DNA of 64,000 nucleotides from Dehalococcoidales bacterium (GTDB lineage Bacteria > Chloroflexota > Dehalococcoidia > Dehalococcoidales > UBA2162): positions 3,998 to 67,997 of the forward strand of contig JAUYHA010000071.1 in assembly GCA_030690265.1 (NCBI GenBank), written 5' to 3'. Below the pieces are notes generated by a model that was not told the origin of the DNA, ran no database searches, and saw only the letters and a list, made by a program, of their open reading frames with translations. The stretch's first letter is position 1. Every line of letters begins with the position of its first letter. The translations under genes were made by a program, and so were the position numbers. Below, one piece after another: positions 3,483 through 30,188 of the stretch.

Positions 3483-3745
3483 GGCTGTCCGAAAATGTCA
3501 TTCTGAGCACATTCGCTACGTTCACTCTGACCTCGGGACTTCGGCGTGAGCTCAGTCGAACGCTGAACTCGGTCTGAAGACGATAACCTGCTCCGAGCTT
3601 GTCGAGGCAAGTCGGAACGAGCTCAGTGTAAACTCCGCGAAGAATCTCGGGGAGTAGCGGGCATTACAAGCATACCCATCCACCGAGACCCTTCACTTCG
3701 TTCAGGGTGACACAATAATAAAGAAAGTGGTGTTTTCGGACCGCC
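3483..3745. mobile_element. MITE-like shell W1 enclosing a GTCA..TGAC palindrome with nested micro-modules
   Basis: TIR GGCTGTCCGAAAA (3483-3495) / TTTTCGGACCGCC (3733-3745); internal block shared with 11.7 and 25.2 kb. Confidence 0.75.
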
Positions 3746-3861
3746 TCGTTTACCTCCTGGTTGAAACTCTTAGATACTAGCACAAGCCTATTTTCAGCGT
3801 CAACCAGAACAGAAAGAGGCAAACTCTCAGCCGGCTTTTTGAGAATGCCTAACAATTCTTC

Positions 3862-3983
3862 TGTCATTGCGAGCCATTCGCAGAAGGCTTCAGCCTTCAG
3901 TCCGAGCCTTCAGGCCGAGGCCCGAGTTCAGCGTTCGACTGAGCTCACGCCGAAGTCCCGAGGGCTTCGCCCTCGCAATGACA
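3862..3983. repeat. GTCATTGCGAG..CTCGCAATGAC palindrome with nested modules
   Basis: Ends match the 57402-57536 copy; 3922-3963 is the exact reverse complement of 3531-3572. Confidence 0.85.
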
Positions 3984-3991
3984 TATTGTTG

Positions 3992-4708
3992 CTAAACAAT
4001 CTTTTTTTGAAAATAGTAGCCGACTCCGGATTCAGTTATGATGTATCTGGGCAGAGCCGGGTCTGGCTCCAGCTTCTGACGCAGGTGCGAAATGTAGATG
4101 CGGACATAATCCAGGTCATCAGTATACTCCCAGCCCCACACTTTTTCCAGGAGTTCCCTGTGGGTAAAAATACGACCAGCCCCCTCCACAAGGAGAGCAA
4201 AAAGGCGGAACTCTTTGGGGGTCAGTTTTACCCGCTCCCCTTTCACCATGACCTTCCGCTCGGCGATGTCCACGGTAAGAAAGTCATCAGCGTAGGTAAC
4301 TTCCCGTTTCACTTCCGCCGGTGGAGATAACTCAATACGGCGCAGTGTGGCTCGAACTCTAGCCACCAGCTCCCTGTTCCCCAGTGGCTTAAAAAGGTAG
4401 TCATCGGCTCCGTAATCGAGCCCGCGGACTATATCTTCCTCAGCCTTCTGCTTACCCGTGAGCAAAATAACGGGCACATCAGAAAGTTCACGGATGCGCC
4501 GGCAGGTCTGCCAGCCATCCATTCCAGGCATAGCCACATCCAGAAGGACGATATCCGGCTTTTCTTTGAACAGAAGCTTCAGACCCTCCTGACCGCCAGC
4601 CGCCTTGAACACCTCCAGCCCCTGCCGACTCAGAACCCGCTCAACCAGCCTGAGAAAGACGGCATCGTCATCAATTGCAAGCACTTTCTTAGTCACAGCC
4701 AACCTCAT
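3992..4708 (-). CDS. OmpR-family response regulator
   Basis: REC domain (AIDDD, LLDVAMP, GADDYLFKP) plus winged helix (LTPKEF, VRIYISHLRQKLE, GVGY); start uncertain. Confidence 0.93.
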   Translation of the reverse strand: MRLAVTKKVLAIDDDAVFLRLVERVLSRQGLEVFKAAGGQEGLKLLFKEKPDIVLLDVAMPGMDGWQTCRRIRELSDVPVILLTGKQKAEEDIVRGLDYGADDYLFKPLGNRELVARVRATLRRIELSPPAEVKREVTYADDFLTVDIAERKVMVKGERVKLTPKEFRLFALLVEGAGRIFTHRELLEKVWGWEYTDDLDYVRIYISHLRQKLEPDPALPRYIITESGVGYYFQKKIV

Positions 4709-5099
4709 CAAGACTAAGATTATCTTTTTGCCTCCGTAATAGCGCTTTGCCAACGATTTCCTTCAGTGCACCAGGTCTAACCGGCTTGGAAAGGTAAGCA
4801 TCACAGCCGGACTCAATCACCCTCTCCCTATCCCTCTTCATAGCATAGGCAGTCACAGCGATAATGGGAGTATGCCGGAAAGCTGGATTTTGCCTGAGCT
4901 TCATGGTCACCTCAAGCCCATTCATTTTGGGGAGCTTAATATCCATTAAGATAAGGTCGGGCTGCTCGCTCACTGCCACCCTCAACGCCTCCTCCCCGTC
5001 AGTCGCCTTGAGCAAAGTATAATCACCTCCCCTGAGGATAATCTGAAACAGCCTCATATTCCGGGGGTTATCTTCAACAATCAGTATCTTCTTTTTCAC
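4689..5099 (-). CDS. Single-domain response regulator (CheY/DivK-like)
   Basis: IVEDN, LMDIKLP, AVTAYA, YLSKP; probable GTG start at 5099. Confidence 0.9.
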   Translation of the reverse strand: MKKKILIVEDNPRNMRLFQIILRGGDYTLLKATDGEEALRVAVSEQPDLILMDIKLPKMNGLEVTMKLRQNPAFRHTPIIAVTAYAMKRDRERVIESGCDAYLSKPVRPGALKEIVGKALLRRQKDNLSLDEVGCD

Positions 5100-6969
5100 T
5101 ACCTGGTTCTCCCGGATTTCTGAAATCACCGTTTGTCAGCGGAAGAGTGAAGTTAAATTGGCTCCCCCTGCCATACTCACTCTCCACCCAGACCCGTCCC
5201 CCATGCTTTTCTATGAGTTGTTTTACCACCGTTAGCCCCAGCCCGGTGCCACCCCTTTCTCTAACCAATGGCTCTTCAAGCCGAATAAAAGGCTCAAATA
5301 TCCGCTCCTGGTCTTCCTTTTTGATGCCAATCCCATTGTCAATCACACTCACCCGGCACCAATCACCCACCCTGACAGCCTCAACCTTCAGTTTACCTTC
5401 ATCAGGGGTAAACTTGGAGGCATTATCCACCAGATTGAGCAGCACCTGGGCTAAGTTACCTTCATCAGCATAGACTAAGGGTAAACAGCTTTCTACATCA
5501 ACATCAAGGCTCTGCTTCCTCGGGGACAGTATCGGCATCACGGTTCTGGTTAGCGAGGCAATGAGCCTTTCCAGAGCTACCTTTCCCGACTTTAGTTCGA
5601 CTTTACCGGATTCTATCCTGGACAGGTCAAGAACATCATTAACCAGACTCAACAGGTGTTGACCGCTATTCAAGATATCATTAAGGCACTGTTTTTGTTC
5701 CTGGTCAATCTTTCCCGATAGCTCATCAATCATCAACTCAGCAAAGCCGATAATGACATTGAGAGGGCTGCGCAGTTCATGAGACATATTAGCCATGAAT
5801 TCTGACTTGCGCTGGTTCGCTTTCTCCACTTCCCGCCGCTGTGCTGTTAGTTCTTCAGCCTTCGACTGAAGGTCTTTCGTCTGGGCATCAAGCAGCTCGT
5901 TCTTCCTTTTCAGCATATTACTTGAGCGCTCCAGTGTTTCCACCATCACATTGAGGGCAACTCCAAGCTTTGACAACTCGTCCTTCCCGGATATCGGTAC
6001 CCGTACTGAGAGGTCACCACTGGTGCCAATACTGCTGACTCCCCGGCTCAAGCGGGTCAGCCGGGATAGAACCTGCCTGTCCAGGAACAAGAGCGCCGTT
6101 ACACCAAGTACGGCGCCAACAGCCAGCAACGATAAAATAAAATAGGCAAGGGTATCCTGACCCTGCGCGTATATATCTCTGGGCATGTCCACTCTCATCA
6201 AGAGAACCGGCTTATCATAGATATCTCTCATCAGCGCATAACCGGCAACAGACTGCTTGCCCAGAGGACGGATAAGAACCGGTATTTCTTCGGAAAGAAA
6301 TGGCACCAGTGTTTGAAAATCGCCTGGTGCTGGCGAACGGTCGTAGCGATATATGGTTAAGGGTAGACGAGTTTGCCCGCTCAAGCGTTCTATTTCGCTG
6401 GAGTCCAGATAACGACCGAGAATAAGTGCCCCCCGAACCGGGCCCTCATCCTCACTGGTGAGTATGGGAGCTGAGACAATAAGCATAGGATTTTCCGGGA
6501 GAAGAATAATCCCTCTGACAATGCTCTCCGGGTCGGAGTGGCTGACGAGAAGACCGCCGGGAGGGAGATAGCTCAGTAAGCTTTCAGGGACAGTCATCTC
6601 TTCCTCATTCTGTAAGTCAAACGCCTTGCCGTGGACCATCTGACCGGAAGAATTAACAAACAGCATAAGGTTAAGCCTTAACTCAGTGAAAGTATCATCA
6701 ACCAGGTTCGTCTGAATATAATCCTGGTTGACATCCTCAACGAAGGCATAAGTATCATCCCATGATGCCCAGTCACTGGTTAGTGATTTCAGGGTAAGAA
6801 GGTCGTTAGACAAAGCATTTAATGCCTGCTCAACATTCTGACGGGTGCGTTGCTCCTCCAGCCGGGCGAAGCTCCGCATCAAAAGAGTCTGCGAGATAAT
6901 ATACAAAATAATGATTAAGGCAAGGAAAACTATGCCTACAGTCAACAATGTCTTGCTGCGTAATGTCAT
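5074..6969 (-). CDS. CHASE4-HAMP sensor histidine kinase
   Basis: DWASWDDTYAF (CHASE4-like), two TM helices, SHELRSPL, NLVDNA, GTGLGL. Confidence 0.93.
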   Translation of the reverse strand: MTLRSKTLLTVGIVFLALIIILYIISQTLLMRSFARLEEQRTRQNVEQALNALSNDLLTLKSLTSDWASWDDTYAFVEDVNQDYIQTNLVDDTFTELRLNLMLFVNSSGQMVHGKAFDLQNEEEMTVPESLLSYLPPGGLLVSHSDPESIVRGIILLPENPMLIVSAPILTSEDEGPVRGALILGRYLDSSEIERLSGQTRLPLTIYRYDRSPAPGDFQTLVPFLSEEIPVLIRPLGKQSVAGYALMRDIYDKPVLLMRVDMPRDIYAQGQDTLAYFILSLLAVGAVLGVTALLFLDRQVLSRLTRLSRGVSSIGTSGDLSVRVPISGKDELSKLGVALNVMVETLERSSNMLKRKNELLDAQTKDLQSKAEELTAQRREVEKANQRKSEFMANMSHELRSPLNVIIGFAELMIDELSGKIDQEQKQCLNDILNSGQHLLSLVNDVLDLSRIESGKVELKSGKVALERLIASLTRTVMPILSPRKQSLDVDVESCLPLVYADEGNLAQVLLNLVDNASKFTPDEGKLKVEAVRVGDWCRVSVIDNGIGIKKEDQERIFEPFIRLEEPLVRERGGTGLGLTVVKQLIEKHGGRVWVESEYGRGSQFNFTLPLTNGDFRNPGEPGSEKEDTDC

Positions 6970-7195
6970 ATCTCTTCCCTGTTAAGCCTGATTATGATAC
7001 AGGACTCAAACCTCCAAACAAACAGCTTCAATGCCAATTGTATCATAAAAGCAACAAATTTGCCAGAAGGCAACATATTATAGTAAATAAACGGGAAAAG
7101 GCAAATATAAGGGCAGAAACCTGTCATTACTGTCAGACAAAAACTGGAGCGGGCATTCAACGGGGCGAAAAGCCAACCGGGGCTGAGAAGATAAC

Positions 7196-7374
7196 CTAGT
7201 GTAGTGCATCTTACGCTTCGTTATTTTCGGTTAACTATACCGACGAAAGTCGGTATCCAGACGTGTAGGCTCATCCGGTATCGCCTGGATTCCGGCTGGA
7301 GTTTATCCCGTACCTGATACGGGGCCGGAATTGGGGGGGCTGTAGCTAACGTTATTTTGAAGACACTACACTAG
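7196..7374. mobile_element. MITE-like shell W3 with internal palindromes
   Basis: Perfect 11-bp TIR CTAGTGTAGTG / CACTACACTAG; contains ATACCGACGAAAGTCGGTAT and the CCCGTACCTGATACGGG module also seen at 12.05 and 14.25 kb. Confidence 0.75.
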
Positions 7375-7527
7375 CATTTTTTACCATATATGTGAATATA
7401 ATTGCAAGTATTATTATTTTAAATATTATGCGTGGATTACCAAAAAACACTTTATTATCTACGCTTAATTTAGCTCAAAATGACCCATTGGTTATCCCTT
7501 ATGGCCTGAATTTTATACTTATGGGTA

Positions 7528-7556
7528 TTGACATATGGTAAAACGTGCTATATTCT
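7528..7556 (+). promoter_or_regulatory. Sigma70-type promoter for ORF 7660
   Basis: TTGACA-N17-TATTCT in an AT-rich region. Confidence 0.55.
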
Positions 7557-7659
7557 TCCAGTTACAGGATACACTATGTCTGAGTTGGTCTATTAAAAAC
7601 CTGAAATTATTATCATTTAAATCCAGTCTGGTCAAGAGTAAATATATGGAGCAGCTGCT

Positions 7660-8013
7660 ATGGTATATTCTATAAAGGATTTGTTAAAAAAGGCATCCAG
7701 TGTTTTTAGCCTTATTAATTTATCAGCTGACAAAGCCTGGCCGGCAGGTGTATTAAATCAGCTTGAGGTCGAGTATCATTTAAAACCGGAAGATATGTTG
7801 CGACTTGGCTATCTGAAATACCGGATGAAGGGAATGAGAAAAGGGTTTTATTCTCTCTATATATATGACAGGCTGGCAGCTCGAGACAGACAACGCCTGG
7901 TGAGGGATGTTAAGGATATCAATAATTCCTCTGACCTTCTTTTGTTCCGGGGAAGTGTGTCAGGGGATGGTGTTATTCAACTCAGTTGGGTAAATGGAAG
8001 CGGAAACAACTGA
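7660..8013 (+). CDS. Hypothetical protein
   Basis: 117-aa ORF with GGAG RBS and upstream promoter; no recognised motif. Confidence 0.65.
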   Translation: MVYSIKDLLKKASSVFSLINLSADKAWPAGVLNQLEVEYHLKPEDMLRLGYLKYRMKGMRKGFYSLYIYDRLAARDRQRLVRDVKDINNSSDLLLFRGSVSGDGVIQLSWVNGSGNN

Positions 8014-8021
8014 GTAATTAC

Positions 8022-9428
8022 TCAAACATTGAAGAAGATTGAAGAAGAAGGTAATCTCACTATAAATTTTGCTCCTTCACCGGGCTGGCTTTCGGCAATG
8101 ATTGTGCCACTGTGAGCCAGGGCTATTTCTCTGGCAATAGCCAGGCCGAGTCCAACCCCGGTCCTGACCCCGGTAATTTGATAAAACCTCTCAAAGACGT
8201 AGGATAGTTGTTCCGGAGGTATTCCAGGACCGCTATCGGTTACGCTAATTTCAACATAGTCACCATTTATGCTATCGGAGACCTGGACGTTGCCTCCGGA
8301 GGGGGTATTCTTGATGGCGTTGTCCAGCAGATTTCCGATTAGTTCTTCCAGGCGGCCGAATTCGCCCATTATACGCGCTTTGTTTCCGTGTTTAACCTCA
8401 AGCACGACACCCTTTTTTTGTGCTTGCAGGCTGAAAACATCGGTACAATGGCTCAAGAGTTCATGAATATCTACGGGTTCATAAGCTATTTTAATCTGGC
8501 CGGATTGCATGCGGGCAAGCTCGAGAAGCTCGTCCACCTGCCGTCTCATCCTGGTTGATTCATCATTGATAATCCTTGCCGCCTTCAACCTGGTATCTTC
8601 ATCGCTGGCGGTGCCATCTATCAGTGCCTGGGCAAACCCCTGGATTGATGTAATCGGAGTTTTCAATTCGTGAGATACGTCAGCGACGAAATGGCGTAAC
8701 TGCATCTGGGACTGCTTTACTTTATCAGCCATGTCATTAAAGTTTTTTGCCAGGTTACCGAATTCCTTTGGGCTTCTGACGGGTATTTTCTTATCGTACT
8801 CACCACGGGCAATCCTCTGGGCAGCGCTGGTTACCTCTTCCAGGGGACGGTACACAGAACGGGCGAAGAAAAAAGCCAGCACCAGCGAAATGGATAAAGC
8901 CGTCACTCCGGCAAGCAGCAACGGCCGGAAGAGACTTGCCATTATAGCCATCGATTCCGTCTGCGGGACGGCCAGGATTAGAGTATCTACCCTGGATGCC
9001 AGCGAAGTAGCTATTCTGACCAGAGGATAGGCGGCGAAAAGATATACCGTACCGCCGGAAGTCTCAAACTTGCCCTGGGTCGGCATGGTAAGATTTTGTG
9101 GAAGACCGGAAGTGACCTGTATCTGCTCGTGATTGGATGATGGTGCAATTTGCCTGGCAATGTTGCCACTGCTGTCAGTCAGGAGGATAAAGACACTATT
9201 CTTTTCTGCCTGTTCCTGGAGACTGGACCATAAGTCCCTCGCTGTTACCTGGCCCGCGACAAGCGACCTGACCTGTACCGAGATAGGACGTGCCATGCTA
9301 TCGAGGCGCTCCATTGTCAATCGGTCACGGTAACCCTGCAACAGCACGGTCATCAGCATTGCTACCAGGCCAAGACAGACAAGTACAATCAGGGTGTAGG
9401 TGGTAAACAAGCGCGTTCGGAAGCTCAT
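8022..9428 (-). CDS. HAMP sensor histidine kinase
   Basis: SHELKTP, NLLDNA, DSGPGI, GVGLGL. Confidence 0.94.
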   Translation of the reverse strand: MSFRTRLFTTYTLIVLVCLGLVAMLMTVLLQGYRDRLTMERLDSMARPISVQVRSLVAGQVTARDLWSSLQEQAEKNSVFILLTDSSGNIARQIAPSSNHEQIQVTSGLPQNLTMPTQGKFETSGGTVYLFAAYPLVRIATSLASRVDTLILAVPQTESMAIMASLFRPLLLAGVTALSISLVLAFFFARSVYRPLEEVTSAAQRIARGEYDKKIPVRSPKEFGNLAKNFNDMADKVKQSQMQLRHFVADVSHELKTPITSIQGFAQALIDGTASDEDTRLKAARIINDESTRMRRQVDELLELARMQSGQIKIAYEPVDIHELLSHCTDVFSLQAQKKGVVLEVKHGNKARIMGEFGRLEELIGNLLDNAIKNTPSGGNVQVSDSINGDYVEISVTDSGPGIPPEQLSYVFERFYQITGVRTGVGLGLAIAREIALAHSGTIIAESQPGEGAKFIVRLPSSSIFFNV

Positions 9429-10108
9429 CCGGTGCTCCTTGCCGGGGACATCTTGTAACCGGTACCACGGAATGTCTCTATGCTCACATCTGAGGCGGAG
9501 AGTTTGTCTCGCAGATTCTTAACGTGAACGTCGACAGTGCGTGTTTCGCCATAGTAATCATAACCCCAGACTATTTCCAGCAGTTTCTCCCGGCTCAATA
9601 CTATGCCGATGTTCTGAGCGAAGGCAGCCAGCAGGTCAAACTCCTTGACTCTCAATGCTACAGGTTTGCCCGCTACGGTTACTTCACGTGCCGGTAGGTC
9701 TATGCGGAGGTTACCGATTTCCATCATCTCTCGCGGCGTGGCTCCCGTTTGATACCTCCGGAGTACCGCCTTAACTCTGGCTGCCAGCTCCCTGGGATTA
9801 AACGGCTTGGTCAGGTAGTCATCGGCACCCAGCTCCAGGCCGATTATTTTATCAACATCTTCTTTGCGGGCGGTGAGCATAAGTATCGGTATGGCGCTTT
9901 TTGCTCTTATCTGACGGCACACCTCAAAACCATCGATATCCGGAAGCATCAGGTCAAGGATGATAAGGTCGGGGTTTACTGATTTTTGCTTTGAAATAGC
10001 TTCCCGGCCGTTAGCGGCGCTCTCTACTTTATAGCCGTCACGCTCGAGGTAGAGTCGGGCTAACTCGATGATATTTGATTCATCGTCCACAACAAGAATA
10101 GTCTGCAT
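9425..10108 (-). CDS. OmpR-family response regulator
   Basis: VVDDE, LDLMLP, GADDYLTKPF, RTVDVHV; overlaps the kinase start (ATGA). Confidence 0.95.
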   Translation of the reverse strand: MQTILVVDDESNIIELARLYLERDGYKVESAANGREAISKQKSVNPDLIILDLMLPDIDGFEVCRQIRAKSAIPILMLTARKEDVDKIIGLELGADDYLTKPFNPRELAARVKAVLRRYQTGATPREMMEIGNLRIDLPAREVTVAGKPVALRVKEFDLLAAFAQNIGIVLSREKLLEIVWGYDYYGETRTVDVHVKNLRDKLSASDVSIETFRGTGYKMSPARSTG

Positions 10109-10192
10109 CTCAATTCCAGAGCGAATGTTCTTGTGCCATTATACCAGAGTCCGGTCTGATTCCTACATTTTGCATCAATAGTTACTACAATT

Positions 10193-10336
10193 TGTCATTG
10201 CGAGAAGTCTTTCCTTGGAAGGACGACGAAGCAGTCCTTTCCCCCATGTCATTGCGAGGAACGCTAGTGACGAAGCAATCTAATAAAATATTCTAGAGAG
10301 TGCCACGCCCCGATGAAATCGGGGCTCGCAATGACA
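10193..10336. repeat. GTCATTGCGAG..CTCGCAATGAC palindromic repeats (two left arms, one right arm)
   Basis: Family consensus GTCATTGCGAG..CGAAGCAATC..CTCGCAATGAC. Confidence 0.85.
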
Positions 10337-10351
10337 GGATAGTTACCTGGA

Positions 10352-10404
10352 GAATTACCTGGAGGTAGATTGGATATGTTGCTTCGACTACCTCCAGGCA
10401 ATTC
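10352..10404. terminator. Long hairpin downstream of ORF 10421-11320
   Basis: GAATTACCTGGAGGTAG / CTACCTCCAGGCAATTC, 17-bp stem with one mismatch; no clear U-tract. Confidence 0.4.
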
Positions 10405-10420
10405 CCTCCTGCGACAGGTA

Positions 10421-11320
10421 TTAATGGGTGGTGCTGCTGCTGCTGCTGCTGCTGATTCCGGGTCTGGTGGCTGGTCTTGCCTGAGATTCCGGTTCGGGCT
10501 CAGGGAGAATCACGATAGGTTTCCTGGCGGGGGAGAATCCCTCCTTCCTGGTCACCAGAAGATAACCACCGGCTTTCTCAAAGGCATATTTTACCTTTCC
10601 GGCCCCGTTGGTGGTGCCGAGGAAAATACCGTAAGTATTGACGGCTTCTTCAAGAGCGGCATCAATTTCAGACTTGTCGCCGCTTTCCCTGATACTGGCT
10701 ATTCGCTCCTTCAGGGCTGCTGCGTCTTCCCGGGTAAATGCCCAGACACCGGCGTCTTTAACCGGGTCTTCGGTACCCCTCTGGAAAACAGTTATGGTTA
10801 TATTCTCATCAACCTGGGCTTTCGGCGGAGCATCTATTGCCAGAGCTGGCAAGTGCATACCGACCGCAATCGGTCTGGAGTCCGGTACGTACCCTCCTAA
10901 TATGGCTACGAGGACATAACGTCCTGAGGTCTCAAACGAATACCAGACCTTTCCTTCGCTATTAGTTCTGGCGATAAAGGTACCATGTATGCCTAACATG
11001 TTTTCGTATTCGGCAACGCTGGTATCAGGATTAGCGTTACGTTTCGCCTTTGCCATCTCCTGTCTCAGGTTCTCGGCTTCTTCTCTGGTCACCAGCCAAA
11101 CACCGGCACCCTCAACCGGCTCCTGGTCAGAGCATTGAAAAACAGTTATGGATATCTGCGTGTTGATGGGTGTTGCTAAAGGTGCGACAATAGCCAGTCC
11201 GTCACGGGGTGGGGTAGTATTTTCCTCACTATCTCCGGTCTGGGCAAACGCTGCAACCGGACTGACAATCATGCCGAGAAGTGCCACAGCAAACAGGGTT
11301 ATAATTGACCATTTTCTCAT
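10421..11320 (-). CDS. Secreted protein with two internal ~120-aa repeats
   Basis: Signal peptide (AFA-Q), AGGAGG RBS; LAI.AP..ITVFQ..PV..AGVW..TRE.A..TN..GKV.Y.FE..G.Y.LV occurs twice; Ser-rich tail. Confidence 0.85.
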   Translation of the reverse strand: MRKWSIITLFAVALLGMIVSPVAAFAQTGDSEENTTPPRDGLAIVAPLATPINTQISITVFQCSDQEPVEGAGVWLVTREEAENLRQEMAKAKRNANPDTSVAEYENMLGIHGTFIARTNSEGKVWYSFETSGRYVLVAILGGYVPDSRPIAVGMHLPALAIDAPPKAQVDENITITVFQRGTEDPVKDAGVWAFTREDAAALKERIASIRESGDKSEIDAALEEAVNTYGIFLGTTNGAGKVKYAFEKAGGYLLVTRKEGFSPARKPIVILPEPEPESQARPATRPGISSSSSSSTTH

Positions 11321-11571
11321 TTTTGTTTTACCTCCTGAATTTTTTGACTGAAGCCAGCGTCAATGACCGGGGCCCCTCAATCATTTGCTGCTAAACTTAA
11401 GTCTTATACTTATTAAAGAGTGCGATTGTTATCCCGGTTTTATCGCTGTGTAAATTCTCCGTAAAATTATTGAGCCGCAGATAACAGCTTGCTGGGGGGA
11501 GGAAAGCGGTTCGCCGCCAGGCGAAGCAAACATCAATCTTTTTTAAAGATAACAATGAATTTTCTGAAGGT

Positions 11572-12150
11572 TGACCCCATCTACTGTATCTCCTTCCCCT
11601 AAAATGAGCTTTGTATCAAAAGTGAGTTCCTCCTTGTCACCCTGAGCACATTCGCTCCGTTCACTCTGACGATAATCGGAACGAGTTCACTCTGACCTCG
11701 GTCTGAACTCGGTCTGAAGACGATAACCTGCTCCGAGCTTGTCGAGGCAAGTCGGAACGAGCTCAGTGTAAACTCAGCGAAGGGTATCGGTGTGGTGGGA
11801 ACTAGCGATTCACCACCAGCCCCACGACCAGATTCTTTGTCGCTTCACTCTGACGAATAACACGATACCGCTTCTCGTTACAGGTAATCGGAACGAGTTC
11901 GCTCCTCAGAATGACATTTGATATAAGACCCCTAACATGGGAAGGGGAAGAAAAGGAAAGGCTGTCCGAAAACAAGGAATCCCTTATTTGTCATTCCGTG
12001 CTTGACACGGAATCCAGAAGTGGTGATGAGGTAGTCTGGATTCTGGCTCCCGTATCAGGTACGGGACAGGCTTCGCCAGAATGACATTTTCGAACAACCT
12101 TAAAACATTTCCCCTTCTCCCGTGGGAGAGGGGGATAAAGGGGGTGAGGG
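11572..12150. mobile_element. Multi-level nested repeat locus (A element containing shells W2 and W1, palindromes and micro-modules)
   Basis: W2 11606-11931, W1 11960-12099, flanked by A and A' arms. Confidence 0.8.
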
Positions 12151-12324
12151 CAAAGGGTGCAGGGAGCGCATGAAAAAGTATTGACTGAGGCTGGGCGGTA
12201 CGTAAGCCCCCCAGCTTGCTGGGGGCACGTTACTTGGGGTAGAAAGAGCGCAGAGGTTAGATTGCCGTTTGATGCTTTTAGGGGTATTATGGGTACGGAA
12301 GAATCGGAATCCGGGGGAAGGCTT

Positions 12325-12471
12325 TTGTTAAAGGAATTCGTGTTTTATTCAGTTGCCGCCGGTGTTATTGGTTTGATAGCCCAGCTTGCCGGGGCTAGCC
12401 TTCCCGTAATTCTGTTTTCGTCTTTGCTGGTCCCTCCTGTTTTCCTGCTTATAGTCAGAATTCTCCGCTAA
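12325..12471 (+). CDS. Small two-TM membrane protein (48 aa)
   Basis: 3' part of ORF 12157; TTG start after GGGGGAAGG; upstream TTGCCG-N17-TATTAT; hydrophobic. Confidence 0.5.
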   Translation: MLKEFVFYSVAAGVIGLIAQLAGASLPVILFSSLLVPPVFLLIVRILR

Positions 12472-12591
12472 GGCTTGATAGACGGCTTTTCCCTTGCTAA
12501 AAAGGAATGCGGGTAATCCCGGCCTGGAAAACAGGAAAGAGCGAACACGGGGTGAGCTTTTAGGCAGGATGCGGGGAAGTACTGCCCAGGA

Positions 12592-14199
12592 TTATCGGTG
12601 AACTTGAGCTTTGCTGAAAACGCTTCTTATTTCAGGGTGGAGGTTGCCTAATTCGGCGACAGCTTCATACCTGATTTTATCAATTTCCCTTTGTTTTTCT
12701 TCAAATTCACCGTTGGAATAAAGCTTTTCCGGGTGCATACAGATGTCATCAACAACCCTGATTGCTGCCGGCACCTGAAAGCCGGTAGGAGAATCCACCC
12801 AGTCTTCAAGCCCGCCTCTCACTAAAGAATCCAGTATTCCCATGGTGGCTTCTAACCGTATATCTTTGTGACGCTCTCCCTCACCGACCCCTCCGGTATT
12901 TAGCAGGTAAAAATTTAAGTGGGGAATGCCTTTTATTATTTCATAGAAAATATTGGCGTGTTCGGTTAAATCACCGGCGACAAAGGGGTCATAGAAAAAT
13001 TCGCTCCGAATCGTTCCAGCCCTGGTCGGGTCTCCGGCGGAGGACTCCATTGCCTGCCCCAGCACCATCAGGGCTGCCGCCTGTTCCCTGGTTAGTTTTG
13101 ATATTGCCGGAATTATCGGTCCTCTGGTGATGAGAACCAGGTTATCCACCCTGTCCACACAAATATGGGGGCTGGCGTGCATAAAAGCTTTTCTAAGGAT
13201 GACGGCTCTGCCATTTGAGGTTCTCTGGAAATCGTAAAAATCAAGGTCCCCATCGTCATCTACGCAAACATTTTCCAGCACGGTTTCCGGTTTTAACAGA
13301 CCGTAATATATTTCGAGCTGTTCTCCTGGATTGACACCTTCTGTTTTGGCAAATATCCCACCTGCCTCAAAGCCGCAAAAAGAGCCATCGGGCATAAGAG
13401 TACCCCCATCATCCTGGACAAGCCAGGACTTTTCCTTTCCCTTTCTAGCCAGTATCCGGCTGGTAGTGGTTGTTTTGCCGTTGGCGCTTAAGGCAATCAG
13501 CAATGTTCTCACCGTACGGTAGTCTCCGTGGATTGACTGAAGATAGTCTTCTCTACAGCCGGCGTGCAGGAAAATGCTGCCCTTTCTCGTCTTGGCCACC
13601 CAGTCTTCGGCGGCGAAGATGCCTTTCTTATACTCACCTATGTAGTTGCCGTTCCTGATTATCTTGACAAATCTTCCGTCAGGCAGCATAGCCAGTCTTA
13701 TGGTGATATCTTTATCAGGAAGTGCCTTGTTTTGGTTGGTTTTAAAGGCTTCATCAGCGAAAAATAAGATTTGATAAGTTGGCTCTTCAATTTTTTTCTT
13801 AACCGGTATAAAAAGATTACCCCCGCCGTAGGCAACATGGGCAAACCGCTCGGGAACGATAAGCCTTACTGTCGTGTCACTGCTCTCATTACCCACAATC
13901 CGGTCAATTGAAATCAGCCTCTCTTTAGCCAGAGCTTCTTCACACTGAGCCAGCAGCTCTATCTCTTCCTGACCAAAGGGGTGGTCGACGCTGTTCCTGG
14001 TGAACATGGCGGACCGGGAGGTAGGCTCACTTTCCGCCACAAAATTGCCATACATTGTTTTCCTGACCCCGGGCTGTTTTTCCACGAGGTCTCTCAGAAC
14101 TTCATCAGAGGGGTTATCTTTTAATCTACCTTCCTCTATTGCCTTTGCTCTGATGCTGTCAGCCGTCTGAACGAACCGTTCCAGATTAAATTCTGCCAT
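12592..14199 (-). CDS. pckA: Phosphoenolpyruvate carboxykinase (ATP), divergent
   Basis: NYIGEYKKG, FLHAG, LSANGKTTT, QDD, FEAGGIFAKT, VLENV, SNGRA, LLNTG. Confidence 0.82.
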   Translation of the reverse strand: MAEFNLERFVQTADSIRAKAIEEGRLKDNPSDEVLRDLVEKQPGVRKTMYGNFVAESEPTSRSAMFTRNSVDHPFGQEEIELLAQCEEALAKERLISIDRIVGNESSDTTVRLIVPERFAHVAYGGGNLFIPVKKKIEEPTYQILFFADEAFKTNQNKALPDKDITIRLAMLPDGRFVKIIRNGNYIGEYKKGIFAAEDWVAKTRKGSIFLHAGCREDYLQSIHGDYRTVRTLLIALSANGKTTTTSRILARKGKEKSWLVQDDGGTLMPDGSFCGFEAGGIFAKTEGVNPGEQLEIYYGLLKPETVLENVCVDDDGDLDFYDFQRTSNGRAVILRKAFMHASPHICVDRVDNLVLITRGPIIPAISKLTREQAAALMVLGQAMESSAGDPTRAGTIRSEFFYDPFVAGDLTEHANIFYEIIKGIPHLNFYLLNTGGVGEGERHKDIRLEATMGILDSLVRGGLEDWVDSPTGFQVPAAIRVVDDICMHPEKLYSNGEFEEKQREIDKIRYEAVAELGNLHPEIRSVFSKAQVHR

Positions 14200-14230
14200 T
14201 TTCCCCCTCCGTCCTTAGTTTTTGGTTTCA

Positions 14231-14347
14231 CGTCATTCTGGCGAAGCCTGTCCCGTACCTGATACGGGAGCCAGAATCCAGCCGTCACCCAACCCCTGGA
14301 TTCCAGCCAGAGTTTATCCCGTACTGGGATACGGGGCTGGAATGACA
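14231..14347. repeat. CGTCATTC..GAATGAC palindromic repeat with nested modules
   Basis: 14232-14281 is the exact reverse complement of 12036-12085. Confidence 0.85.
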
Positions 14348-14500
14348 GTTGTAAATATAGCCTGGGTTATTCAAGCTATTTCTAAAGCACCATATTAAGA
14401 TTATAGCATTATTTTATCTGGTTAATCTGTGCTACAATTACAATAATCTAACATTTTTTAGCTGTGGCTGAGTTCCGGTTTAAAAAATACGCAGGTTGTA

Positions 14501-14998
14501 ATGGCTATGATCCGCCAATGCCAGCGGAGTGATACCGAACGGATATATTTTATTATTAATGAGGCAGCCAGAGCCTATGAAGGAGTCATACCGGCGGACT
14601 GTTATCATCAGCCTTACATGCCTATGGAGGAACTTAACCGGGAAAGCAAACGTATGGCTTTCTTTGGCTGGGAGGTAGATGGAGGGCTGGTCGGGATAAT
14701 GGGGTTTGAGCCGATTAAGGATGTTTATCTGATACGCCATGCTTATGTATTGCCCCGGTGGCAGCGGCATGGAATCGGCAGCAAACTCTTAAATCACCTT
14801 AAAACATTGGTCACTACTTCTCGGCTGCTGGTTGGTACCTGGGCTGATGCCAACTGGGCAATTCGCTTCTACCAGAAACACGGCTTTACTCTTCTTGCCG
14901 ATAAAGACGAGCTGCTTAAAACCTACTGGGATATTCCTCAGCGCCAGGTTGAGACTTCGGTAGTCCTGGGTATAAATTTGATACGCAGAACAAGATAA
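14501..14998 (+). CDS. GNAT acetyltransferase
   Basis: YVLPRWQRHGIGSKLL, AIRFYQKHGF. Confidence 0.9.
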   Translation: MAMIRQCQRSDTERIYFIINEAARAYEGVIPADCYHQPYMPMEELNRESKRMAFFGWEVDGGLVGIMGFEPIKDVYLIRHAYVLPRWQRHGIGSKLLNHLKTLVTTSRLLVGTWADANWAIRFYQKHGFTLLADKDELLKTYWDIPQRQVETSVVLGINLIRRTR

Positions 14999-15017
14999 TG
15001 TGTCAGGAGGTCAGGAG

Positions 15018-15935
15018 ATGTTGTCAGTGAAGGAAAAAGAACTAATTTTGGCGGAGCCGGACAGGTTTGTCGAGGAAGAAATTAAGGCATTCGCCGCCAC
15101 CGCTCCGGCTAACCGCCTCTCATTTCTTTCTGACCATATTATTTTTGATGAGCCGCTGGTAAGGTTTGCCGCTGGTGATGACCCTATCTTCACTGAATAC
15201 AAGACCATTATCGCTTCTACCCACCTCACCCCCCGTGAGGCGTTGGCTCGAGCCTGCAATAAGAGCCCTGAAGATATGCCGGAGCGCCTTTCAGTGATAA
15301 GCTGGATTTTGCCCGTCACGGAGAAGACCTGTAAATCTAACCGCAGCGAGAGGCTCGCGCCCAGTCGGCTCTGGTCACACACCCGCTGGTATGGCGAGAA
15401 ATTTAATGATGCAATGCGGAAGTATGTGGTGGAACTGCTCGGTGGAGCGGGCTATCTGGCAGCGGCGCCGGTGTTGCAGCACTACTTCAAAACGGATAAA
15501 AATGAGAAAGGACCTTACTCAAACTGGTCAGAACGCCATATTGCTTATGCTGCCGGGCAGGGCACCTTCAGCCTTTCCGATGGCTTTATTACCGAGCGGG
15601 GTATCGCCCACCGCTGCGGCAGCGTGGTTACTGACCTGGTGCTGCCGGCAAGCCCGAGAATAGCAGAGAACCATCTCTCAAACTGCCTGTTCTATGTGGA
15701 TGGTAGCTGTAATGCCTGTGTCGTCCGTTGTCCTGCCGGGGCTATTACCGAGCAAGGGCACGATAAGATAAAATGCCGGGCGTATCTGGAGAGTATCGGT
15801 TATTACACGGCATTGAAAGAAGGCTATGACAATGAGAAGAGCGTAGCCGGCTGTGGACTTTGCCAGACAAAGGTGCCCTGCGAATACCGAATCCCGGCGA
15901 AAATAGAAAAGATACGGAAGAAGCAGGCAGAGTAG
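15018..15935 (+). CDS. Epoxyqueuosine reductase-like 4Fe-4S protein
   Basis: WSERHIAYAAGQG, GSVVTD, CNACVVRCP, CGLCQTKVPC. Confidence 0.8.
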   Translation: MLSVKEKELILAEPDRFVEEEIKAFAATAPANRLSFLSDHIIFDEPLVRFAAGDDPIFTEYKTIIASTHLTPREALARACNKSPEDMPERLSVISWILPVTEKTCKSNRSERLAPSRLWSHTRWYGEKFNDAMRKYVVELLGGAGYLAAAPVLQHYFKTDKNEKGPYSNWSERHIAYAAGQGTFSLSDGFITERGIAHRCGSVVTDLVLPASPRIAENHLSNCLFYVDGSCNACVVRCPAGAITEQGHDKIKCRAYLESIGYYTALKEGYDNEKSVAGCGLCQTKVPCEYRIPAKIEKIRKKQAE

Positions 15936-15966
15936 TGCCCGATTGATACCTTTTGCCCAAAAGCCC

Positions 15967-16200
15967 CTATAGCTCAGTTTCCAGAAGGGTTGTCGTATCC
16001 TGAACACCCTGAATGCCGCGGACTTCACCAACGACTATCTTGGTCAGTTCAAAAAGGCTCTTGGCTTCAGCGATAGCGATGGCGTCCCACTGACCGAAGA
16101 CGAGATTGATACCCGTGACTCCTTGAGTGGCTCTAATCTGGGTTAGAGCATCTGATTCCAACCCCGGCACCAGCTTGATGAGAAGATAACCTTTCACCAT
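15967..16200 (-). CDS. Lrp/AsnC ligand-binding (RAM) domain protein
   Basis: GYLLIK..PG.E, VFGQWDAIA, GVQDTTTL. Confidence 0.88.
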   Translation of the reverse strand: MVKGYLLIKLVPGLESDALTQIRATQGVTGINLVFGQWDAIAIAEAKSLFELTKIVVGEVRGIQGVQDTTTLLETEL

Positions 16201-16240
16201 ATAGAAGTATTATATTCCTTCCTGGTCTTATTGACAAGTC

Positions 16241-16385
16241 TAACCCCATCCCCTTTATCCCCTTCAGGGAGAACCCCTCTGGGTGAACTCGGGCTGAACC
16301 CTTCAGGGTGAACCCTTCCCCTTGTCAAGGGGAAGGGGAAGAAAATTTTAGAGAGGGGCTTTGCCCCTCTCTTACCTACACTCCC
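16241..16385. repeat. A/B hairpin element with nested TTCACCCTGAAGGG composite
   Basis: 16261-16315 is a near-identical reverse complement of 25391-25444 and 30127-30180. Confidence 0.85.
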
Positions 16386-16470
16386 CTATTCTCGGCGATA
16401 GATTGAAAGCTAGGTGGCGCTGAGAATAGAAATAAAACCAAAAGAAAATAACATATAACCAAATCTATGT

Positions 16471-21456: not shown

Positions 21457-21546
21457 TGTCGTTGCGAGGAACGTTAATGACGAAGCAATCTATATGAATA
21501 ATTTATAGAGATTGCCACGTCCTTCTGAGAAGGACTCGCAATGACA
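21457..21546. repeat. GTC.TTGCGAG..CTCGCAATGAC palindrome (un-nested form)
   Basis: Family consensus, AT-rich spacer. Confidence 0.85.
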
Positions 21547-21567
21547 GAATAGTTAGGAGATAAGTTA

Positions 21568-24941: not shown

Positions 24942-25463
24942 CAACCCCTCCCCCTGTCCCCTTCCCCTGATAAGGGAAGGGGGAAATATAAAAAAAGAGA
25001 AGGGCGAAACCTCTCTCAAACACCCCTAAGATTAGGAAATATCAGGGATGTTTAAGAAAGGTGGAACCCTTCTTTCCAAAACCTCTTCCCCCTCTCCTTT
25101 CTAAGGGTCTGTATCAAAAGTGGTTTTTGCCTGTCACCCTGAGCATATTCGCTCCGTTCACTCTGACGATAATCGGAACGAGTTCACTCTGACCTCGGTC
25201 TGAACTCGGTCTGAAGACGATAACCTGCTCCGAGCTTGTCGAGGCAAGTCGGAACGAGCTCAGTGTAAACTCAGCGAAGGGTCTAAGTGTGGCGGGGACT
25301 AGCGATTCACCACCAGCCCCACGCCCAGATTCTTCGTCGCTTCGCTCCTTAGAATGACATTTGATACAAGACCCTCTTTTAAGGAGAGGGGTTCATCCTG
25401 AAGGGTTCAGCCCGAGTTCACCCCGAGGGGTTCACCCTGAAGGGGATAAAGGGGGTGAGGTTA
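24942..25463. mobile_element. Multi-level nested repeat locus (A-B-B-A' with W2 shell and micro-modules)
   Basis: W2 GGGTCTGTATCAAA (25105) .. TTTGATACAAGACCC (25374) sits in the loop of A'; near-copy of 11606-11931. Confidence 0.8.
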
Positions 25464-27164: not shown

Positions 27165-27177
27165 TTGAACTACCTCC

Positions 27178-27495
27178 TTATTTTTCTTCCTTCTTCCGGA
27201 CGTATAATTTCAAGCTATCCACTTTAGTTATTATTACTTCCTCCCCTGCTTTCACCGGGCCGGATTCCGAGATTGCTGCCCACCGTTCCCCATCAACAAA
27301 GACGGTTCCCTGGGGTTCTAAGTTTACCTTGACCACGGCAGTTCTGTCAATCAGTTCTTCCATGCCCGCGGCTATCTTGAAGCGGTGTGCCCGGATGCCC
27401 CAGATAATGGTTACCACGGACATGACGACAAACCCGATTAACAATACGGAAATCAACCACGGGTCTAACATAAAATCCCAGTTAATTATGGGCAT
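27178..27495 (-). CDS. Short NfeD-like OB-fold protein
   Basis: TM helix plus GTVFVDGERWAA; paralogous to the C-terminus of the upstream gene. Confidence 0.85.
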   Translation of the reverse strand: MPIINWDFMLDPWLISVLLIGFVVMSVVTIIWGIRAHRFKIAAGMEELIDRTAVVKVNLEPQGTVFVDGERWAAISESGPVKAGEEVIITKVDSLKLYVRKKEEK

Positions 27496-27499
27496 TTGT

Positions 27500-28819
27500 T
27501 TATTTACCCCCCTGTTTCTTGGTTACATATAGTTTTAAGTTATCCATTCTGGTTATAATCACTTCTTCCTTGGGTTCCACCCGGCCTGATTCTGATATCG
27601 CCTTCCAGCGCTCACCCCTGAATAATACCATACCCTCCGGTGCCAGGGCTACCTCAACTCTAGCCGGCTTGCCAATCAGTTCTTCCCAGCCGGTGGTTGA
27701 TTGAGAATGCTGGGCTTTGATTACTCGCTGAATGATAAAGGCAAAGACGGCGGTAATGAAAATGGCGCTGCCGGCAATCAACCACGGATTTATCTGAAAC
27801 AATGGAATCCTACCGGGAAATAAGAGCAGAGAGCCCAGAACAAGCGAGGCGATTCCTCCGGCAGTGAGTATGCCGAAAGTACTGGTGAACATTTCAGCGA
27901 TAAAGAGGGCGAAAGCAAGCACGATAAGCAAAATCCCTCCCAGGTTGGCATCAAGAACACCTAACGAATAGAAAGCTATTAGCAGGCTAATGACGCCGAT
28001 GATGCCGGGGAAGAACATCCCCGGGTTATATAACTCAGCAATTATACCTATGGTGCCTATGCTGAGCAGAATGTAGGCAATATTGGGGTCGCTAATAGCA
28101 TGCAGAAAGCGTTCAATGGTGCTCATTTCATTTCTGGTTAATTCGTAGTCCGAAGTGTCAAGGGTGACCTCGGCGCCGCTGGCTAACTTAACCTTCCGGC
28201 CATTGATTTCAGAAATAAGGCTTTGTAAGTTATCAGCCCGCAGGTCAATAAGATTCAGATTGAGGGCGTCAATATCGGTGAAGGATTTACTTTCAGTAAC
28301 AGCGAGCTGGGCTTCTTCCAAATTGCGCCCGCGCTCTTCAGCAATGGTCTTCATCCACTTGGCTGAGAACTCGGTTATCTTTTTCATCTGGTCTTCCGGT
28401 ATCTCCTGACCTCCGCCGGATACCGGGTGAGCAGCACCGATAGTTGTGCCCGGCGTCATGGCAGCGATATGGCCGGAGAAAGTAATGAAGGTTCCGGCCG
28501 AAGCCGCCCAGGCGGCTTTTGGCGAGACATAAACAATCACGGGTACATCGGCATTCATAATCTTCTGGACAATTTGCTCTGTCGAACCCAACAGTCCGCC
28601 AGGAGTATTCAGCTCGATTATAACAGCAGCGGCATTCTCGTCTTCAGCCTGGCTTACGCCCCGGTCAATATAATCAGCAATAACTGGAACAATGGTACCA
28701 TCAACAGTTAAGATATGGATTGACTGGGTAACCGCTCCGGCTGTAGTCTGTAACAAAGCAACAGCCAGTATAGCTATAAAAAAAGCCAGACGTCCGAGTC
28801 TGAACTTATTTCCAAACAT
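27500..28819 (-). CDS. nfeD: NfeD membrane serine protease
   Basis: NTPGG, AASAG, IGAAHP, GERWKA. Confidence 0.92.
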   Translation of the reverse strand: MFGNKFRLGRLAFFIAILAVALLQTTAGAVTQSIHILTVDGTIVPVIADYIDRGVSQAEDENAAAVIIELNTPGGLLGSTEQIVQKIMNADVPVIVYVSPKAAWAASAGTFITFSGHIAAMTPGTTIGAAHPVSGGGQEIPEDQMKKITEFSAKWMKTIAEERGRNLEEAQLAVTESKSFTDIDALNLNLIDLRADNLQSLISEINGRKVKLASGAEVTLDTSDYELTRNEMSTIERFLHAISDPNIAYILLSIGTIGIIAELYNPGMFFPGIIGVISLLIAFYSLGVLDANLGGILLIVLAFALFIAEMFTSTFGILTAGGIASLVLGSLLLFPGRIPLFQINPWLIAGSAIFITAVFAFIIQRVIKAQHSQSTTGWEELIGKPARVEVALAPEGMVLFRGERWKAISESGRVEPKEEVIITRMDNLKLYVTKKQGGK

Positions 28820-29246
28820 GCGACCTCTATTAACTTTTGCCAGGCAGTAGTTCCTGGCATCATTCGACCTTAATGAGATGGAACCAATAAAAATATAACA
28901 TAATCTGGGTTCGCTGGCAAGTTACAAGCCTGTTGTGTCGTGTGTTATTTTGAAATGCTTGAGTGGCAATGATACACTTAAGGTATGGCTAAGCAACTGG
29001 CTCGGACATATTATTGTATTCGTAATGATTAGTTTATTCTTTACTTTGATTTTATATTTATTTGTCCCGTACTTCCGCCTTTTATTCTTTTTCTCTGGTA
29101 AGCCATTCTATCTGTTAGGCATTTAAGGTTTTTATGTTTTCTAAAATGATATACTACTCTTGTTGGAGTTGTTTAGCAACTATAGTGGAGAAGAAGAACT
29201 CAAGCTGGAGATAAGGCGGGGGGATAGAATCAGAAATGGAGGAAGG

Positions 29247-29867
29247 TCAGTTAGAGGGAAAAGAAGAAACCGACACCTTGCTTTTAAAAGACGGTGAGGA
29301 AATATCCTCGGTGGACATTAATATGGCATCTTCCCTGTCATTGGTGTAGTAACCTTTTCGTAGACCTACCCTGGTGAAACCATACCGGGTATAGAGATTC
29401 TGGGCGGTAGTATTGGAGGCTCGGACCTCAAGAGTCACGATACGAACCTTTAACTTTCTAGCCAGGTTTATAGCCGAACCAAGTAACATTCCCCCTATTC
29501 CCTGGCGGCGGTATGTCTGGCGCACTCCGATAATGGTAATGTGCGCCTCATCAGATATAACCCACAAGCCGATAAACCCGATAATGTAATGTCTTATTGA
29601 CGGAGATGGCTCATCCGGCGGGAAGTGATTGAGTCCAAAGATACGTCTCAACCGGTAGGTCAGTCCGGTCAGCTTCCTATCTGAGGAGCCAGCCGCGGGC
29701 TGCTCAAATTTCTCTCCGTCACAAGCGATAATATAATGGGCTAGCCGATTTTTAAGTTCATGCTGGAAATTAGGTGGCGGCCATTCATTAGGAAAAGCTT
29801 CACGGTCAATTTCAGCAACCTGGCTAGCGTCTTCCTTATACATCGGGCGTACAAAGTAAGACAACAT
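29247..29867 (-). CDS. rimI: Ribosomal protein alanine N-acetyltransferase
   Basis: EAHI, RRQGIG, LEVRASN, RKGYY, EDA. Confidence 0.9.
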   Translation of the reverse strand: MLSYFVRPMYKEDASQVAEIDREAFPNEWPPPNFQHELKNRLAHYIIACDGEKFEQPAAGSSDRKLTGLTYRLRRIFGLNHFPPDEPSPSIRHYIIGFIGLWVISDEAHITIIGVRQTYRRQGIGGMLLGSAINLARKLKVRIVTLEVRASNTTAQNLYTRYGFTRVGLRKGYYTNDREDAILMSTEDISSPSFKSKVSVSSFPSN

Positions 29868-30004
29868 TTTTCCCTTCCTGTAGGGGGGTTTTGCTGTCGA
29901 CTTGAATCTGGCCGACGACGCCCCGAGACAAGTGAAAATACGCTCTTATTCATATCCTATACCCTTCTTCAGTTCTGGTCAATCCCTTTAAGAGTGTTTA
30001 CCAA

Positions 30005-30188
30005 TGTCATTGCGAGGGTTCGCAAGAACCTGTGGCAATCTATAAGATTTAGTGAGATTGCTTCGCGGAGCCTGTCCTGAGCGCTATGAGATTCTTCGCT
30101 ACGCTCAGAATGACACGAAGCGAAGGGTTCACCTTGAAGGGTTCAGCCCGAGTTCACCCCGAGGGGTTCTCCCTGAAGGGCTCGCAAT
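30005..30188. repeat. GTCATTGCGAG palindrome with nested modules
   Basis: Contains GAGATTCTTCGCTACGCTCAGAATGACA half-element and the TTCACC.TGAAGGG composite. Confidence 0.85.

Follow-up and report, generated by a model that had tools for sequence, protein, structure and literature searches.

The 64,000-nt stretch of DNA analysed here (the window, contig C87:3998-67997 of a Dehalococcoidales genome bin) carries intergenic repeats composed of palindromic modules set inside one another, and the elements at 11572-12150, 24942-25463 and 3483-3745 are bracketed stacks of such modules. We give a probability of roughly 0.6 to the reading that these genome-wide, non-coding, hairpin-forming repeats represent a system of the Ssn type (a single-domain GIY-YIG nuclease acting on single-stranded DNA, ssDNA) whose hairpin loops trap very small inserts. 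In its most likely form this would be a REPIN/BIME-like system of an Ssn-type element, and its best-supported mobile piece is a unit of 24-27 nt, termed X. The bin comprises 2.44 Mb in 196 contigs (91.7% complete, 7.3% contamination) and its source habitat was probably groundwater.

A census of 14-mers with at least four genome copies, with regions counted from 30 nt upward, resulted in 390 repeat regions covering 45.6 kb (~2% of the genome), the longest of which lies in the window at 11635-12149. The window holds 16 regions, and 11 of these fall between 3483 and 30188. The original prediction, made from the sequence alone, had estimated about 16 repeat loci, all intergenic, and all 16 indeed sat in gaps between long open reading frames (ORFs); two overlapped only ORFs 3761-4330 and 12157-12471, both lacking a Pfam match, and one overlapped ORF 29760-30080. 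The most frequent head word, GTCATTGCGAG, was present in 142 genome copies compared to ~1.2 expected for a uniform 11-mer, with further heads at 39 (GTCATTCTGAG), 13 (GTCACCCTGAG) and 25 (GTCATTCCCGCG) copies. De Bruijn unitigs and a token parse revealed a strand-consistent grammar of units in 80 of the 390 regions, and the order of units was strand-consistent in 64 of these 80 unit-bearing regions.

The nested stacks at 11572-12150 and 24942-25463 were confirmed by sequence, as was the recurrence of their inner block at 3496-3712 within a different shell, W1, itself a genuine outer inverted repeat (GGCTGTCCGAAAA..TTTTCGGACCGCC). The two compounds share 237 nt at 92% identity (11626-11862 and 25123-25359), and an inner block of 88 nt recurs at 3563-3650 with 94-95% identity. 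At the outermost level of the first compound, a C/G-rich hairpin of a kind found uninterrupted at 1049-1075, 1120-1146 and 49372-49398 is split by an element termed W2. The CTAA predicted beside W2 in both cases was present on both sides at the first compound (11599-11602 and 11932-11935); at the second it was present on the left side only, the right flank reading TCTTTTAA. The W2 family (..GTCTTGTATCAAA..) has seven members with inverted ends of 15-17 nt that differ by inner units being present or absent. The right-arm loop, for example, has no insert at 25341, contains X in two further copies and contains X with an additional 27 nt at 11844-11897. Likewise, the loop of the CACATTCGCT hairpin was empty at four loci, held X at two, X[Y] at six, X[Z] at one and X[Y[X]] at one (Y and Z being inserts of 25 and 27 nt), and the insert-free base shell of the 11635-11916 type was found in 13 of 24 same-family genomes. 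Modules varied independently of their hosts, with every level of the stacks occurring filled and, elsewhere in the genome, empty. W1 pairs surround nine elements genome-wide with two kinds of core, NTS-type or GTCATTCTGAG-type, which supports recombination of shells and cores with each other.

The original prediction had treated the shells as anonymous CGTC-tagged palindromes resembling repetitive extragenic palindromic (REP) sequences. They match instead the hairpins of Ssn GIY-YIG nucleases. The NTS of Neisseria is defined as CGTCATTCCCGCGMAVGCGGGAATCYRG and has been generalized to Ssn-related motifs (SRM), and 94-aa single-domain GIY-YIG proteins (cd10448) flanked by such hairpins cut ssDNA next to them (PMC11893778). 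In the unitigs TGTCATTCCCGCGAAAGCGGGAATCCAGC, nearly identical to the Neisseria NTS, had ~19 copies. Many repeats start with TGTCATT and finish with AATGACA, and the heads TGTCATTGCGAG, TGTCATTCTGAG, TGTCATTCCCGCG and TGTCATTCCGG were counted 142, 39, 25 and 37 times (as 10-12-mers minus the leading T). All four heads carry the SRM head HGTCWY directly 5' of the palindrome, and the C right after the palindrome, a key binding base in PMC11893778, is present in the tails GCAATC, AGAATC and GGAATCC. The basic unit is a GTC-A head, a stem (ATTGC/GCAAT, ATTCT/AGAAT or ATTCC../..GGAAT) and then C. Two inverted hairpins make a palindromic doublet of 80-150 nt, some with an outer W1 or W2, and 107 such paired shells were found genome-wide. 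By head, tail C and gene association the shells appear to match NTS/SRM hairpins, although their loops lie outside the published limit. A loose outer motif, (GATT)GTTTAGCAAC .. GTTGCTAAAC(AATC), was also seen to flank some copies, on one side or on both, 5-15 nt beyond their TGTCA ends; it adjoins many GTCATTGCGAG / GTCATTCTGAG doublets, e.g., at 3840-3862 and 3983-4002.

No mobiliser gene was visible in the window, as had been stated, and all seven GIY-YIG matches of the genome were on other contigs; three small GIY-YIG ORFs were present in the genome, none of them in the window. An ORF of 95 aa at the end of contig C117 matched PF01541 (63 bits; a single GIY-YIG domain). At E <= 1e-10 it has >4,000 relatives, which are 94-130 aa long and carry the names GIY-YIG nuclease family protein or putative endonuclease; NCBIfam returned only a weak group I intron endonuclease match. 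Upstream of this gene is a hairpin doublet. The gene ends within an inverted hairpin (TATAGAGATTGCCACGCT..), which contains the stop codon and whose loop already carries X-type cargo. A relative of the same order displayed a minimal unit, TGTCATTGCGAG..GCAATCT-ORF-TAGAGATTGC..CTCGCAATGACA, with TGTCATTGCGAG at both ends. The inverted hairpin directly followed the stop codon in 8 of 10 homologue loci and the forward hairpin directly preceded the start in 3 of 10. Across 41 genomes, whose kinship makes them non-independent, the median number of TGTCATTGCGAG copies was ~23 in the 20 with a strong homologue compared to 1 in the 21 without, and a reversed-pattern control gave 0-1 copies.

Many doublet centres read TATATGAATAAT(C/T)TATAGA, in which ATGAATAA, the opening 8 bases of the ORF, runs directly into the tail of the inverted hairpin. 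Such centres suggest that the doublets arose from the gene unit by internal deletion. The ssn-like gene itself stands between these two hairpins, so the doublets resemble versions of its unit that lack the gene. The Ssn study only likened the NTS-ssnA-NTS architecture to an insertion sequence (PMC11893778, Nat Commun 2025); the doublets, which share their ends and apparently the first 8 ORF bases with the gene unit, have the look expected of a gene-less derivative of a mobile unit and would supply the missing piece. Among other mobiliser genes, RAYT/Y1_Tnp (PF01797) and TnpB (PF07282) had no match in the 91.7%-complete bin, DUF559 gave one weak match within a 1314-aa frame, and the 12 DDE_Tnp_1 and 16 rve matches were mostly on short contigs, with W2 ends absent from all 12 DDE_Tnp_1 contigs.

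Two further GIY-YIG loci were observed. A damaged second copy of the hairpin-flanked gene lies at C140:5-187; it is 49% identical across residues 35-95 and has one internal TAA. On contig C90 (L004 1240-2260), a tRNA-like gene identified by eye precedes two tandem GIY-YIG ORFs (95 and 79 aa) and the beginning of a third. Behind each ORF is a further copy of a ~50-nt segment carrying the apparent tRNA 3' end (..AATCCCACCCTCTCCGCCAGCCTGCGCTAAAGCTTCGGCTGGCAAGCC), a layout suggestive of serial integration at a tRNA gene. The C90 ORFs are only 34% identical to the hairpin-flanked ORF of C117.

X consists of TTCACTCTGAC, a centre of GATAA, TTA or ATA, and TCGGAACGAG, with a typical length of 26 nt. 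The genome parse gave 96 X frames, 54 intact and 42 with cargo of 7-150 nt. Intact X had 53 copies here compared to 0-3 in each of 37 same-family genomes, only 6 of which held any X, and this looks like a burst in the lineage. The 53 copies occupied 26 distinct 7+7-nt contexts, in both orientations and also in unique DNA, with T starting the right flank in 49 and G ending the left flank in 47; no consistent target-site duplication was seen around them. The exact X 26-mer was also detected on 21 metagenome contigs from several projects (22 copies, ~14 contexts) and had no match in the viral contigs searched. Four of these copies read ATACCGACTTTCG[X]TCGGTAT, in the loop of a ATACCGAC..GTCGGTAT hairpin that is also present in the window at 7196-7375, and three read GTCCATG[X]TAAAATCATGGAC, in a GTCCATG..CATGGAC hairpin. 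Others were in the same two SRM loops as here and one was inside another X. Wherever the host hairpin could be drawn, the insert lay, by eye, in the loop or at the loop/stem junction. As far as sequence can tell, X has spread by insertion.

On one metagenome contig (L035) exact X units are located at 512-537 and 768-793, both at ^TCCGG and 256 nt apart. The pair interrupts what was read by eye as the frame of an IS3-type transposase, and each X adds 26 nt and so shifts the frame.

Cargo enters X between CTGAC and GATAA or between GATAA and TCGG, and it was of four kinds: Y, Z, 25 nt of doubled CTCGGTCTGAA (units of 11 nt) and a CTTCGGCTACGCTCAGTATAAA piece of 22-25 nt. Y itself contained an X of 24 nt in 13 of 35 copies, one Z held a further 24 nt, and X was also found directly inside X. 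In a bracket parse restricted to four module classes, 32 regions were at least three levels deep and 10 were four levels deep; adding the C/G-rich hairpin and W2 gives five levels at 11572-12150. Tandem arrays of X comprised 2-4 copies. The 12-13-nt arm units CAGTTCTGGTGAC / ATCACTGGAACC were present in unequal numbers on the two arms (5,4; 3,2; 1,3; 2,1), and symmetric nested insertion was therefore rejected for them, the inequality indicating slippage of the units. Within X (e.g., 11660-11685), within Y (e.g., 11727-11751) and within the CAGTTCTGGTGAC / ATCACTGGAACC pair, the two arms have the same purine/pyrimidine pattern, and the arm differences are transitions in 10 of 10 cases, with G-T and A-C oppositions equally frequent. 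An earlier candidate, X as a stable hairpin, was dropped because no arm-to-arm fold was obtained; the symmetry of the arms at the purine/pyrimidine level was retained.

Under an Ssn-type system, the hairpins would extrude on ssDNA, and their loops would be accessible and tolerated sites. X could then be placed by nick-and-join or copy-in within the loop or at the loop/3'-stem junction, just 5' of T and often of TCG, and inserts retaining the host stem would survive. Survival of stem-preserving inserts only would produce nesting without any family-for-family preference. The repeat families had been proposed to serve as preferred targets of each other; the common target was instead a hairpin loop or a loop/stem junction rather than any particular family. 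Of the proposed mobilisation of several families, the part concerning X and whole hairpin doublets appears to hold, as does, weakly, that concerning W2, but not an extension to Y and Z, which were seen only inside X. An Ssn-like nuclease is the only candidate enzyme seen for the movement of X. We are doubtful of the further proposal that Ssn-type GIY-YIG nucleases drive a transposition-like system on ssDNA hairpins, in which the gene unit gives rise to gene-less doublets and the same or an associated activity pastes X into loops 5' of T(C)(G). If it were true, X would rank with the smallest known mobile DNA elements and, of these, would be the first to have a candidate enzyme. X would in any case be a tractable very small element, given its burst in this lineage, its identical copies in different organisms and a target that can be read (hairpin loops, 5' of T); where such elements come from has been a question ever since the small dispersed repeats (SDR) of cyanobacteria became known. 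In practical terms, short-read assemblies break at the repeats, which contain 86 of 392 contig ends, and the repeats create spurious small ORFs.

Several observations weigh against the Ssn-type reading. PMC11893778 reports cleavage by Ssn only, and nothing links Ssn to the joining of DNA. The stem of the CACATTCGCT hairpin is followed by A/T and not C, and the strict SRM pattern, HGTCWYN(0-2)YYVSBRHN(0-5)WNVSBRGN(0-2)RNCYNB, matched 36 times compared to 12-20 times in five Markov-1 simulated genomes, 18 of the 36 being GTCATTCCCG-type; this enrichment is weak because most local loops exceed the 5-nt limit of the pattern. The closest PDB relative of the C117 protein, UPF0213 BH0048, is a weak one (E = 7e-4), and three genomes with a weak or no homologue (cut-off E <= 1e-5) hold 20-30 TGTCATTGCGAG copies. 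X alone folds at -1.1 kcal/mol (DNA energy), an unstable hairpin whose predicted pairs are not arm-to-arm, and possible microhomology of 1-3 nt is present at most X junctions. Y (38 copies) and Z (13 copies) are confined to X, so their independent mobility is not supported, and X could derive from X[Y] by deletion instead of X[Y] from X by insertion. One other Chloroflexi metagenome-assembled genome also carries a block resembling X[Y].

The confinement of Y and Z and the bases shared at X junctions are also what would be cited for an origin without dedicated mobility, by slippage, template switching and gene conversion among similar palindromes, with hairpin-compatible products surviving. The unequal arm unit numbers, the tandem X arrays and the Z copies, whose terminal TAA or TGAC matches the bases preceding them, point the same way. 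We nevertheless consider this origin unlikely for the repeats, since the same 26-nt unit with the same ends recurs in 26 + ~14 unrelated contexts, some in other organisms, since Y sits between A and T with no base shared on either side, and since the excess of X over the 37 relatives looks like a burst. Insertion of ordinary miniature inverted-repeat transposable elements (MITEs) of DDE transposons (IS5/IS1182/IS630-like) into one another would account for the inverted ends of W2 and its flanks, CTAA/CTAA at 11599/11932 and TTTTTAAG on both sides in contig C137, and DDE_Tnp_1 and rve genes are available in the genome. A clean duplication was, however, present in only two of the seven W2 copies (the two just named), W2 ends were on no assembled transposase contig, units of 24-27 nt leave too little length for a terminal inverted repeat to be recognized at each end, and the ends of the GTCATTGCGAG doublets are those of the GIY-YIG gene unit and not of a DDE gene. 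MITEs are accordingly an improbable source of the stacks.

It is very improbable that the elements are structured RNA genes with variable arms. The strand-consistent unit order would suit such genes, as would the G-T-compatible arm differences (10 of 10 transitions) and the modestly better folding of the W2 element than of its shuffles (328 nt, 11608-11935; z-scores -3.3 and -2.7 on the two strands). The two strands nevertheless fold about equally well, A-C mismatches are as common as G-T, copies lie in any orientation relative to genes, and hundreds of copies with insertions of 0-200 nt are unlike RNA genes. Rfam at the gathering score returned tRNA-Ser only, with a chance-level miRNA match (E = 0.34) over 11400-12300. 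The chance that the nesting is a chimera of short-read metagenome assembly is smaller still. The contig ends that fall in repeats and the contamination of the bin would favour a chimera, and public contigs from three runs in two studies, aligned over window positions 3000-17000, stopped at every repeat locus, with none bridging 11516-12125; the exact module order given for the compounds is that of the assembly. The unique flanks were covered ~12.5x in the best run with no differences. Public contigs skipped 3517-3620 (104 nt, the empty-loop form) and 11844-11897 (54 nt), these being derived from other copies and not alleles of this locus; the public contigs thus neither confirm the assembly nor reveal polymorphism. 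Against a chimera, dozens of loci with unique flanks follow the same grammar, as do relatives and independent metagenome assemblies, and point changes separate the two compounds of the window (92-94% identity). Every 141-mer of the three window elements is unique in the assembly, and we infer that the assembler used words of such a length. The three elements share exact sequence over at most 136 nt (between the two compounds), which would permit a swap but would not create the module order.

Compared to the published NTS/SRM hairpins (PMC11893778), the repeats share the GTC-A head, the short stem and the C after the stem, intergenic copies in the hundreds, a single-domain GIY-YIG gene of ~95 aa between hairpins, and a repeat abundance that follows gene presence among relatives. 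They differ in that published hairpins are 20-50 nt with loops of 0-5 nt, whereas loops here reach ~200 nt of nested modules, in stems of ATTGC, ATTCT and CTGAGC, and in inverted doublets with the outer inverted repeats W1 and W2. Our literature searches returned no account of nested inserts in SRM hairpins or loops, nor of these repeats in Chloroflexota. The available part of PMC11893778 does not mention this phylum; its supplementary genome lists and SRM alignments may already include the lineage.

For X, the closest precedent may be the SDR. Elhai and co-workers reportedly described these in 2008 in Nostoc and its relatives as units of 21-27 nt that occur in many contexts and nested, with no known mobiliser. 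X would resemble them in unit size, in its 26 + ~14 contexts, in nested copies and in precise insertion points. The likeness is one of description, and X differs in its phylum, in its hosts, which are mainly Ssn-type hairpin loops, and in its apparent target, a loop/stem junction 5' of T(C)(G). SDR5, for one, inserts between the third and fourth base of HIP1 (PMC4390886). With REP/REPIN/BIME-RAYT systems the repeats have in common inverted hairpin doublets, mosaics and a gene of domesticated appearance that is present once, between repeats of its own, and recognition of ssDNA hairpins would be expected in both. Unlike those systems, which depend on IS200/IS605-like Y1 enzymes, the bin yielded no Y1_Tnp or TnpB and the flanked gene encodes a GIY-YIG nuclease. 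Pneumococcal BOX, ERIC with internal insertions and Correia elements are, as here, modular and intergenic, with a variable number of inner units and hairpin potential. They have one level of modularity, and are not known to have units of 24-27 nt nested three to five deep.

The coordinates of the window features are given in Table 1.

Table 1. Repeat features of the window and their inner units.
Feature	Position	Strand	Remarks
C/G-rich hairpin	11590-11950	+	Arms 11590-11599 and 11939-11950; split by W2
W2 element	11608-11931	+	Inverted ends GCTTTGTATCAAAAGTG .. CATTTGATATAAGACCC
SRM-type shell, hairpin doublet	11635-11916	+	TGTCACCCTGAGC .. CTCAGAATGACA
CACATTCGCT..CTCAGTGTAAAC hairpin	Loop of left half of 11635-11916 shell		
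Intact 26-nt X	11660-11685	+	TTCACTCTGAC-GATAA-TCGGAACGAG
Second X frame, with cargo	11686-11761	+	25-nt CTCGGTCTGAA x2 at 11697-11721; 25-nt Y at 11727-11751
X frame in right-hand hairpin loop	11844-11897	+	27-nt Z-like insert at 11861-11887
W1-shelled doublet of NTS-type hairpins	11960-12099	+	TGTCATTCCGTGCTTGACACGGAATCCAG and inverted partner with nested CCCGTA..TACGGG hairpin
Second compound	24942-25463	+	C/G-rich element holding W2 (25105-25374); shell 25132-25359
Second compound, intact X	25157-25182		
Second compound, loaded X frame	25183-25258		Right-arm loop of the compound empty
W1-shelled element	3483-3745	+	Outer inverted repeat GGCTGTCCGAAAA (3483-3495) and TTTTCGGACCGCC (3733-3745)
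Shell inside W1	3496-3712	+	TGTCATTCTGAGC..GTTCAGGGTGACA
Cargo-loaded X frame	3521-3621	+	TTCACTCTGAC .. TCGGAACGAG; 25-nt Y at 3587-3611
GTCATTGCGAG-type hairpin doublet	3863-3982	-	Loop with 12-20-nt CTCGG..TGAAG-type units
Element of ~180 nt, separate family	7196-7375	unassigned	11-nt inverted ends CTAGTGTAGTG..CACTACACTAG
Hairpin doublet	10194-10335	+	Two nested GTCATTGCGAG heads, single closing CTCGCAATGACA tail
NTS-type hairpin doublet	14231-14349	+	CGTCATTCTGGC..GCCAGAATCCAG / CTGGATTCCAGCC..GGCTGGAATGACA
C/G-rich family	16242-16341	+	12-14-nt ..GGGTGAAC units adjoining CCCTTCCCC..GGGGAAGGGG hairpin
Plain GTCATTGCGAG-type doublet	21457-21547	+	Centre ATGAATAATTTATAGAG matches ssn-like ORF start + post-stop hairpin tail
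GTCATTGCGAG head, CTCAGAATGACA tail	30002-30181	+	Run of GGGTTCA-type units, 93% like 25386-25444

The element at 7196-7375 includes an NTS-like hairpin in addition to its ATACCGAC..GTCGGTAT hairpin; within its family, a core of 104 nt has ~18 copies and an NTS-like core of 47 nt has ~39. The neighbouring genes of the window are ordinary housekeeping genes, among them ribF, a response regulator, phosphoenolpyruvate carboxykinase (PEPCK), a MiaB-like enzyme, birA, GNAT and NrpR. The NrpR regulator family is best known from methanogenic archaea. The ORF concerned (30587-31582, minus strand) displayed strong NrpR NRD1/2 and winged-helix domains (E = 7e-82).

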